In this document: piece by piece, positions 44,018 through 63,987 of the stretch
Layout of the letters: every line of letters begins with the position of its first letter
Numbering within the stretch: position 1 is the stretch's first letter
Source: Hormiphora californensis
Lineage: Eukaryota; Animalia; Ctenophora
NCBI GenBank assembly: GCA_020137815.1
Contig: CM035361.1
Span: 4,402,001-4,466,000 of the forward strand
Length of the DNA: 64,000 nt
Direction: 5' to 3'
Made by a program: the position numbers and the translations under genes
Notes under the pieces: generated by a model
What the model was told of the DNA's origin: nothing
Database searches by the model: none
What the model saw: the letters and a program-made list of their open reading frames with translations, nothing else

Positions 44018-47000
44018 ATGACGATTCTTGCGGGCCTGACGGGCCGAGTGTGTCTCAGGAACAGGTCCCGTCTCTTTTCCACATCCAATCTGAGGCATGC
44101 TGCTCCTGGGACCGCCTACCAGGAGCTTACAGTCGGTAAGTGCATGTATGTGACAATAATACTGGACACTGGTTAGTGTATGTGACAATGATACTGGTTT
44201 GTTGCCTAGCTATACTGTGTTTCGCGTGTGTTAGAACATAACAACTGGTTTCGTGTATTTGATGGATAAAAGCTTTGGGCGAAGCTGCGAATTGCCTTGT
44301 TAGACCCTCTTGGCTCTCTCTTTCCGTATCCCAGTTGCAGTAAAAAGGTTTTGAACAAAACAAACTGCGATAAATGTACACCTGTATTTCCCTTCCATAC
44401 CTCCCTCAATCCCATGTATCCCACGGCCCCATTCTCAGTTTCCTAGTTGGACCCCTTAGGGGCCCACTTTTTTAATAAAATAAATTAAAATGAAATTGGT
44501 TTGAACAAAACGAATTCCCAGGTGTTCCCGCTGAAACTATGGAAAACGAAAAAAGGGTGGCCCTCAGTCCAGCGGCCAGTGCTGCGCTCATCAAAAAAGG
44601 GCTCAACGTCGCTGTGGAGTCAGGGGCTGGAGCTCATGCACAGTTTTTGGATAGTGCATACGAGGCTGTTGGAGCAAAGATCGTGGACCGGGAAACTGTA
44701 TTTCAGTCTGGTGAGTGGGGACTGGGGGTGTACAAATGTTACAATGTAATCATGTCATGATCTGTGAGGAGACTGTAAAAAAAGGGACATTTGTGTTTTT
44801 ATCAACATGTAAAAAGGCCAAAGTGTATACTAACAGTCATAATAATATCTAACAGACATGACTCTTAAGTATACATTTTTAACTTTTTATTTTACAGGCA
44901 TTGTCTGTTATACCCACGTTGGGTAACTCATGCCCTACTAAAATTTAGTTCGACGTTCGATTGATTGACGATTGATAAACGATTGATGACGTCGAACTAA
45001 ATTTTAGTAGGGCAAATGTATTGCAACTACGTTCATCATCTCATGTTCGTGATATATTTTCTAGATATCGTTGCGAAAGTTCGAGCACCGCTTACAGAAG
45101 AAGTTGCCCTCCTCAAAGATAAAAGTACCCTGATCAGCTTTGTGTACCCGGCACAAAATCCGGAACTCTTGGCAACCCTCCAGGAAAAGAATGCTACCGT
45201 CTTCGGAATGGATACCGTGCCCAGGATCAGTCGAGCTCAGGTGAGGTCCCCCTGACACTTCTTGAAACATGTTCTAAAGAGTTGAAAACAACCTGACAAG
45301 TGATAATCATGCGATAAAATATTGACATCTGGAAGGAAGGTATCGTGATTGAAAGATCTGTATTACCTTTTCTGTATTCTTAAAGTCACATAAATTATAG
45401 GTAACCCACTATCTAGGTGTTCGATGCCTTGAGTTCCATGGCAAACATTGCTGGTTATAAAGCTGTTATCGAGGCTGCAAACCACTTTGGACGTTTCTTT
45501 ACTGGGCAAATCACCGCCGCTGGCAAGATTCCTCCTGCCAAAGTATTGGTTATCGGTGGTGGTGTGGCGGGACTCAGTGCATGTGGTAAGTAATTCCTGA
45601 AAACCTTTTAAAACCTAAAGAAAGGAGTTAGTCAAAAAATTTGTCGCTGCTAAACTATTGACATTTAAATCCACCAACTTTACTGGTTACAAATCCTGGT
45701 CCTCTAATTTTTCTTAAATCATCTTCTAGGAACGGCCAAGAATATGGGTGCGATTGTGAGAGCTTTTGATACACGAGCTGCTGTTAAGGAACAAGTTGAG
45801 AGTATGGGAGCCGAGTTCCTTACCGTTGAAATTGAGGTTGGTGACATTAGAAAAAGGAACCAGGTCGTTTTCTTTGATCAGCAGTGTGAATTGTTCACAA
45901 TGTGAACCGAAATATGAACAGCAAGTACCTTGCTGCTGATGTTCATAGTCACACTCAGCTTAGTTCCCCTCAGTTCGAAATTGTAGAAAATTCCCAACAG
46001 TAGGAAACACTGGCAAACCCGTATTGGCATCTAAATATCACCGAATATCTAAGTTAAATAGTCTCTTATGATTGTTGGTTTGTGCAGGTTTGTGCGGGTT
46101 TATGCGGGACCTGTGTGTACTGCGTCAGTCTGTGATATTGTGATGACCGTTTTTTTCTCGTGTCTATTTGTGTGCACTGTTACATGCAACTACAGTACTT
46201 ACCTAGTTCAAGTCTACAAAGAGGGGCGTCCTTGTTCCACTCTCCGTCGGAATTACAGGTCCTCTCACGGCTACCATCTCGTACGTGCTTCTTCTGGCAG
46301 TTGATGGTCACCGTCTGTCCAGGATCAGTATCGTTCCAACTTCCTTGCACTGATCCGTCCCCAGTGGTGCTCGATTGAAAATCTTAACTCTATCGAAATA
46401 TTTTGAACGGCAAAATTTGAAGAAAATAGCTCATCTGAACGGCAAAATTCACAACAACCAAAACCAAACCCAATTTGTGACTAAGTGTGGTCTAATGAAC
46501 AGTTTAGAACCGTAGATAGGCGGTAGATCGGTAAGATAGAGACAATTGATTTCATAGGTCTAGTGATTATTAGTGACACGAATAAGGTATAAAGCCGTTA
46601 AAAACCGTCAATCTACATCTCCGATGTGGCCGAGTGGCTAAGGCGCCTTACTCAAGACACGCAAGGTACCGGGTTCAAATTCCGCACATAAATTTTACAC
46701 TTTTTACTGAAATTTTCCAACGGCAACGCTTTTTTGAACGGCCAATTAAATTTGAACGTTAAGCAATCGAGCACCACTGGGGATCCGTCGACAGTAAAAC
46801 CAGGGCACGCTGATGGATAAAAATGCTGTAAGGATCAGCTGATATTTTTTAAACATACAAAATTCTCCTGAAATTGGGGTTTATTATAATCACTCCTTGA
46901 TCCTTCATTACCTGCTGGTTTTGCACGGTAGCTGTCAGATGCAGTATCCAGGTTGCCAAATTTTATCTTTTCCACTACATCTCCTCCCCACTTCGGTACA

Positions 47001-63987: not shown

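Follow-up and report, generated by a model that had tools for sequence, protein, structure and literature searches.

Contig CM035361.1 of the ctenophore Hormiphora californensis (assembly GCA_020137815.1) harbors a cluster of three minus-strand genes which occupies positions 46125-63102 of a 64,000-nucleotide stretch (contig positions 4,402,001 to 4,466,000, forward strand; hereafter the window, from whose first letter all coordinates are counted). The genes encode chains of Sushi domains and of a domain of about 141 residues, termed D, which is predicted to adopt a galectin-like fold and whose variable face carries a signal of positive selection. The explanation favored here, held tentatively and at slightly less than even confidence, is that these secreted chains recognize surface glycans of microbes or parasites. 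The genes are likely part of a large repertoire directed at many foreign surfaces.

A first-pass annotation of this DNA had described three genes built from eight D and seven Sushi exons in phase 1-1, with a signal peptide and no transmembrane segment, and this architecture is upheld. Every internal exon is flanked by AG and GT, intact D exons measure 426-429 nt, intact Sushi exons 177 nt, and both are phase 1-1. The exon order is signal peptide (SP)-D1-S1-D2-S2-stop in gene A (63102-60867, minus strand), SP-D3-D4-S3-D5-S4-D6-S5-D7-S6-stop in gene B (58702-54466, minus strand) and SP-D8-S7-stop in gene C (50259-46125, minus strand). All three genes possess a signal-peptide exon, as judged from sequence, and no transmembrane segment is assigned because the 19-residue hydropathy maximum outside the signal peptides is at most 1.18 in each. 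The Pfam Sushi/CCP profile (PF00084) matches all three exons tested with 33-35 bits (cut-off 20.7). The shared acceptor suggests that each terminal exon comprises one residue and the stop. The seven Sushi copies are all present; the count is to be corrected by an eighth, decayed copy. The features of the cluster are:

63048..63102, minus strand: gene A signal-peptide exon, 18 codons plus 1 nt
62095..62848, minus strand: gene A exon D1, insertion near the 3' end, stop at codon 139
62123..62442, no strand: 320-bp inverted-repeat element within D1, 8-bp target duplication, putative hAT-like miniature inverted-repeat transposable element (MITE)
61822..61998, minus strand: gene A Sushi exon S1
61210..61635, minus strand: gene A exon D2, intact
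60938..61114, minus strand: gene A Sushi exon S2
60867..60871, minus strand: gene A final coding bases and stop, putative terminal exon
58648..58702, minus strand: gene B signal-peptide exon
58024..58449, minus strand: gene B exon D3, intact
57479..57897, minus strand: gene B exon D4, lacking one base of an A-run near 57663 in the assembly, in frame in contigs of two samples
57207..57383, minus strand: gene B Sushi exon S3
56592..57020, minus strand: gene B exon D5, intact
56320..56496, minus strand: gene B Sushi exon S4
55689..56114, minus strand: gene B exon D6, intact, the copy used for the structure model (galectin-like fold)
55416..55592, minus strand: gene B Sushi exon S5
54795..55223, minus strand: gene B exon D7, intact
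54523..54699, minus strand: gene B Sushi exon S6
54466..54470, minus strand: gene B final coding bases and stop, putative terminal exon
52113..52293, minus strand: orphan decayed Sushi exon, about 78% identity to the other Sushi exons, in-frame stops
50205..50259, minus strand: gene C signal-peptide exon
46912..50077, minus strand: gene C exon D8, interrupted by an insertion of 2,735 bp
47225..49959, no strand: DNA-transposon-like insertion in D8, terminal inverted repeats of about 127 bp, TA target duplication, putatively Tc1/mariner-like
46203..46809, minus strand: gene C Sushi exon S7, carrying an inverted-repeat insertion of 422 bp at 46360-46781 (8-bp target duplication)
46125..46129, minus strand: gene C final coding bases and stop, putative terminal exon

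The introns leading from a Sushi to a D exon start like the terminal intron and then contain a remnant of a D 3' end including its donor site, which suggests that the array grew by duplication of intron-D-intron-Sushi modules. With the frame of D4 restored, the product of gene B would be about 965 aa long, by summed exon lengths, and would contain five D domains and four Sushi domains.

The structure model of D6 is a compact 141-aa domain with 137 residues at a predicted local distance difference test score (pLDDT) of at least 90, and it predicts a jelly-roll beta-sandwich of the galectin/ConA type, in agreement with an earlier guess. Neuropeptide and prohormone precursors are unstructured and yield short repeated peptides, and a reading of D as such a precursor was dismissed on account of this compact model. 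Galectin carbohydrate-recognition domains carry the motif HxNxR ... WxxExR, and galectins usually lack a signal peptide. D resembles galectins (PF00337), including the tandem-repeat galectins 4, 8, and 9, in its predicted beta-sandwich, strand order, size and tandem arrangement, at 7-15% sequence identity. It differs from them in the classical signal peptide, three conserved cysteines and Sushi spacers of its proteins, and its putative binding face is hypervariable rather than conserved. Neither HxNxR nor WxxExR occurs in any of 233 D domains, the PF00337 hidden Markov model (HMM) matches none of 113 D-family members at E<=0.1, and a D profile finds no match among PDB sequences at E<=10; the statement that D belongs to no named family therefore stands in the Pfam and PDB sequence comparisons. 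Since two Mnemiopsis proteins, ML020113a and ML07495a, carry true PF00337 domains among the colloblast candidates of a supplement (PMC6278862), D appears separate from the galectins of ctenophores. The top Atlas feature match for a D domain, obtained with a Bolinopsis homologue as query, is the Farnesoic acid O-methyltransferase-like domain (PF12248; score 0.91, 13 of 30 matches), which shares only 130 of 256 features, under the 170 usual for true members; its HMM matches none of 113 + 20 D-family proteins, and PF12248 is a possible, unproven distant relative. Weak Pfam matches of D (CXXC_Zn-b, PilZN, DUF951, and others) were partial or inconsistent and were dismissed.

The eight D copies were compared over 141 codons, with D1 cut at its insertion and the breaks in D4 and D8 coded as X. 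All strings that had been quoted for the variable blocks (five for block 1, eight for block 2, seven for block 3) are present, and the blocks themselves are confirmed, with the addition that residues 7-10 and 112 vary as well. By pairwise counts of nonsynonymous (pN) and synonymous (pS) differences, the strict framework shows a pN of 0.024 and a pS of 0.156; the framework omega is 0.14. The corresponding pairs of pN and pS are 0.283 and 0.168 for block 1, 0.301 and 0.260 for block 2, and 0.244 and 0.332 for block 3. The Sushi exons differ by a pN of 0.013 and a pS of 0.067, the introns by a p-distance of 0.045-0.046. The earlier description of introns, Sushi exons and framework as barely different thus holds for the framework in its protein sequence and fails at its silent sites; because silent divergence in D exceeds that of Sushi exons and introns, D is older or less homogenized than its flanks.

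Site models in our own implementation yield likelihood-ratio test (LRT) statistics of 68.6 (M1a/M2a), 74.3 (M7/M8), and 67.3 (M8a/M8), with an omega of 10-11 at 6% of codons. The D copies are mosaic: the compatibility of nearby sites exceeds that of shuffled sites (p<=0.0002 for 66 sites, 0.0002-0.012 for 32 third positions), a signal to which rate clustering can contribute, and the nearest-neighbor copy switches between segments. The LRT was therefore checked for robustness, and falls to 24.4 when double and triple hits are allowed, to 63.5 with four segment trees and to 38.6 with both. In 52 null simulations on those four trees, analyzed on one tree, it never exceeded 13.8. Twelve sites exceed a posterior of 0.7 under four trees (33, 35, 37, 50, 60, 62, 63, 66, 67, 112, 126, and 129), seven of which are recovered by single-tree models. 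In the D6 model, ten of them lie on strands b3-b6 and b10, site 129 in the loop right after b10 and site 112 in a helix. The sites alternate along strands which, by their predicted order, would form one sheet, which bears out the earlier suggestion that changes on alternating residues mark one face. In the wider family, too, variability is highest at these sites (3.49 versus 1.94 bits; 0 of 50,000 permutations). With position sets assigned by hand from alternation and hydrophobicity, and the surface placed by strand order, variability averages 3.51 bits at outward positions of the putative binding sheet, as compared with 1.99 for the opposite sheet and 1.1 for core positions, and core sites next to variable ones remain hydrophobic in distant relatives. 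Covariation across 246 domains is noisy, with only a few top pairs agreeing with the sheet assignment.

These results bear directly on the proposal that the cluster is a neutral, decaying tandem array, in which gene conversion, clustered mutation and pseudogenization produced patchy divergence. Four lesions across the three genes, the significant mosaicism, and the fall of the LRT from 68.6 once multiple hits are modeled all speak for such decay, yet the statistic is still 38.6 with both corrections, as compared with at most 13.8 in null simulations, the framework omega is low and the same sites, with hydrophobic core neighbors, are most variable in distant relatives. Neutral decay is largely refuted and is given the smallest chance of all readings considered here.

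The lesions affect D1, D4, D8, and S7, so that every one of the three genes carries at least one of them as assembled. In D1, the 320-bp insertion introduces an in-frame stop. It shares with the S7 insertion the start of the terminal inverted repeat (8 bp) and the 8-bp target duplications, and the interiors of the two differ, which suggests two MITE subfamilies mobilized by one transposase. A tRNA-like stretch was noticed by eye at 46620-46690 inside the S7 insertion, where ARAGORN finds no tRNA gene. The frameshift in D4 probably reflects a mistake in the assembly or a variant confined to one haplotype, because the extra base is present in two contigs that otherwise match D4 without a difference, one of 98 nt (run X1) and one of 93 nt (run X4), which come from two samples and two studies; a near-identical paralog could be an alternative source of these contigs. 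A 126-nt X1 contig overlapping the break matches the D4 variable blocks exactly, and none of the 32 pieces examined (of 1,358) spans the site without the extra base. Contigs of the second sample leave the D4 variable blocks uncovered, a gap that carries no weight either way. One contig from a run presumed to be RNA matches D1 over 214 letters with a single mismatch and then reads through to an ordinary D end, the insertion being absent; as it reaches only 18 letters past the joint, this is a weak hint that the insertion may be polymorphic. Two runs presumed to be RNA contain one and four matching contigs, one of them intronic, and splicing is not shown by them. Summed contig depth, above 100,000 over D framework segments versus a few hundred in unique stretches, was set aside and is not a copy number.

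A search with D6 returned 14 longer proteins and 77 of similar length, as well as 1,102 clusters (50% identity) at E<=0.001, 488 of which reach 1e-10. Cluster identities refer to the best 150 of the 1,102, and lower-ranked clusters may include other taxa. Names were checked for 29 distinct proteins: 11 are environmental records, and all 18 named ones come from ctenophores, namely Pleurobrachia bachei, Mnemiopsis leidyi, and Bolinopsis microptera. The closest named relatives among the matches listed are P. bachei proteins with up to 71% identity. Relatives contain one to five D domains together with Sushi, Ig, TSP1, LDLa, or ephrin/TNFR-like modules. In the environmental records P0117, P0120, and P0185, signal peptide and D share a single open reading frame, as in spliced or intronless copies, which speaks to the D family and not to the locus in the window. 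In the Bolinopsis relatives P0113 and P0166, the terminal tail is hydrophobic and similar to a glycosylphosphatidylinositol (GPI)-anchor signal, and membrane-bound forms may thus exist. Outside these collections, none of 8 pattern matches in prokaryote genomes and none of 85 in viral contigs was confirmed as a D relative; in metagenomes, 0 of 84 matches were confirmed with D6 alone, and a close alignment gave 7 loci from 56 matches.

Eight P. bachei proteins named 'putative secretory peptide' (-3, -20, -26, -43, -45, -48, -50, and -52; UniRef/NCBI nr) contain the same D, which is 44-71% identical to D6; most have a signal peptide, Sushi is frequent among them, and by this likeness they qualify as true D-family members. 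The candidate secretory peptide class comprises 72 proteins in a table of PMC4685580, among which the eight probably rank, to go by their names. Previously filed as peptide candidates, they are read here, on the model, as folded lectin-like domains and would be re-labeled as lectin-fold proteins.

Several readings could accommodate a secreted domain with a selected face. Microbes and parasites are placed first as targets because diversity among paralogs within a genome, birth and death, and an omega near 10 fit the recognition families of invertebrates. Each D would bind its own target via the putative concave sheet, and the one to five D of a chain would together permit multivalent binding, by which targets would be agglutinated or marked for clearance; the opposite face, which is conserved, and the Sushi units would serve as scaffold. 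Duplicated exon modules, segments exchanged among paralogs and selection acting on the binding face would supply new specificities, and copies would be lost to transposon insertions as part of birth and death; an arms race may drive this turnover. Two caveats attach to the recognition reading. Two of the three genes are disrupted, and pN exceeds pS with good support, averaged over blocks, in block 1 only, so that the earlier claim of diversifying selection is borne out by the codon models, with omega above one, and only partly by the block averages.

The glycan component of this reading is contested by the idea that the variable face binds proteins, the chains acting as decoys or inhibitors of enzymes and toxins of parasites or prey. 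The absence of the galectin sugar-binding motif and substitutions ranging over charged, aromatic and aliphatic residues, as on protein-binding surfaces, agree with it; the variable positions nevertheless appear to match the galectin sugar-binding sheet and residue 67 is mostly aromatic, and we consider protein targets improbable.

A prey-capture adhesin, released from colloblasts or tentacle gland cells and binding surface glycans of zooplankton prey, is unlikely but has more in its favor. The colloblast candidates of Mnemiopsis are enriched in Sushi/SCR and lectin terms (PMC6278862), and the set in the supplement of that paper includes 15 Sushi proteins, mostly of 240-330 aa with a long unannotated stretch followed by a single Sushi. 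All named D relatives among those listed stem from tentacle-bearing lineages, and a secreted multivalent architecture suits a glue. The Sushi domain of most candidates starts near residue 200, as opposed to roughly 170 in SP-D-Sushi, and no MD5 match links the candidates to the compared proteins of at least 150 aa, the supplement giving no sequences. An omega of about 10 is moreover not required of a general adhesive.

Sexual conflict or species isolation acting on an egg coat, sperm surface or spawning fluid could also place a secreted binding surface under strong positive selection, as is typical for reproductive proteins of broadcast spawners; a family of 1,102 clusters that occurs in no fewer than three genera, with paralog diversity within a genome, is more than a one-to-one gamete ligand needs, which makes gamete recognition a slightly poorer candidate than protein targets. 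Allorecognition or self-marking looks the weakest of the functional options raised by the first-pass annotation and is highly unlikely: high variability and the GPI-signal-like tails of P0113 and P0166 would suit it, but the products in the window lack a membrane anchor and ready fusion and chimerism are reported in ctenophores of three genera (PMC11565835).

A single GT-AG intron of 17,780 bp, belonging to an NAD(P) transhydrogenase (NNT-like) gene, contains the whole cluster in antisense orientation. PF05222 or PF01262 matches five of six host exons tested, and profile positions run on across the intron (46-78, then 91-113). The host features are:

45837..63616, plus strand: host NNT-like intron, GT-AG
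~44536-44710, 45065-45240, 45417-45585, 45730-45836, 63617-63700, 63917-63988, plus strand: host NNT-like exons

Nested genes are common in pleurobrachiid ctenophores, with 1,654 host genes reported (PMC8527503); the likeness lies in several genes sharing one host intron, and the nesting is ordinary for this lineage rather than the novel part. Long foldback palindromes occur between genes B and C at 52952-54274 (1.3 kb, 96%) and 50699-51442 (about 0.75 kb). Elsewhere in the window, three copies of a small gene (1-1050, 4420-5061, and 13407-13914, minus strand) encode a hydrophobic segment, clustered cysteines and a long tail rich in proline and tyrosine (YPPP), and the copy tested has no Pfam match. 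A long interspersed nuclear element (LINE)-like element at 18622-25020 (plus strand) comprises ORF1 (ORF, open reading frame), an endonuclease (PF03372) and a reverse transcriptase (PF00078); its ORF2 is interrupted by an insertion of about 2.2 kb with long inverted repeats, and repeat sequence similar to this insertion or element recurs at 59394-59720 and 60612-60784. A second reverse-transcriptase fragment (PF00078) lies at 35030-36232 (minus strand), and a Tim17/Tim22/Tim23-family coding sequence, apparently across two frames (PF02466, E 8e-8), at 38472-38925 (plus strand).

Relatives of D are known in databases only as hypothetical proteins or secretory peptides. A search of the open literature, exclusive of the 2014 Pleurobrachia genome paper and of the supplements with Foldseek annotations of a mesoglea proteomics preprint (10.64898/2026.02.02.702917), which could mention members, found no description of the D domain, its fold or its selection, and none of a diversified recognition system of this sort in ctenophores. 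Two papers state that recognition and adhesive molecules of ctenophores are unidentified (PMC11565835) and that ctenophore immunity has been surveyed mainly via known Pfam domains (PMC11797021). The word 'galectin' is absent from the main text of the latter, a Mnemiopsis immune-repertoire study, and one of its supplement files lists none of three Mnemiopsis gene numbers looked up there. With more than 1,000 clusters and an omega near 10 on one face, the D family would escape surveys of this kind. It offers small, confidently modeled domains for glycan and microbe arrays, and either binding outcome would bear on how comb jellies recognize microbes or how colloblasts stick to prey.

Diversified recognition families of invertebrates include the FREPs of snails, the C1qDC proteins and C-type lectins of bivalves, the VCBPs of amphioxus, and the SpTransformer family of sea urchins. 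As in those families, D proteins form a large, secreted, modular multigene family in which selection and recombination act on a putative binding surface and pseudogenes are frequent. A bolder proposition, possible but doubtful, is that ctenophores independently evolved a large variable-recognition repertoire on a galectin-like scaffold, with hundreds of D modules per genome, a constant framework and a concave face resembling complementarity-determining regions, in which segmental gene conversion and the swapping of phase-1 exons reshuffle the modules. Unlike the invertebrate families above, the D system, as known here from sequences and models, combines a galectin-like fold with Sushi domains in ctenophores, and would put a familiar type of system, that of diversified secreted recognition proteins, on a new scaffold.
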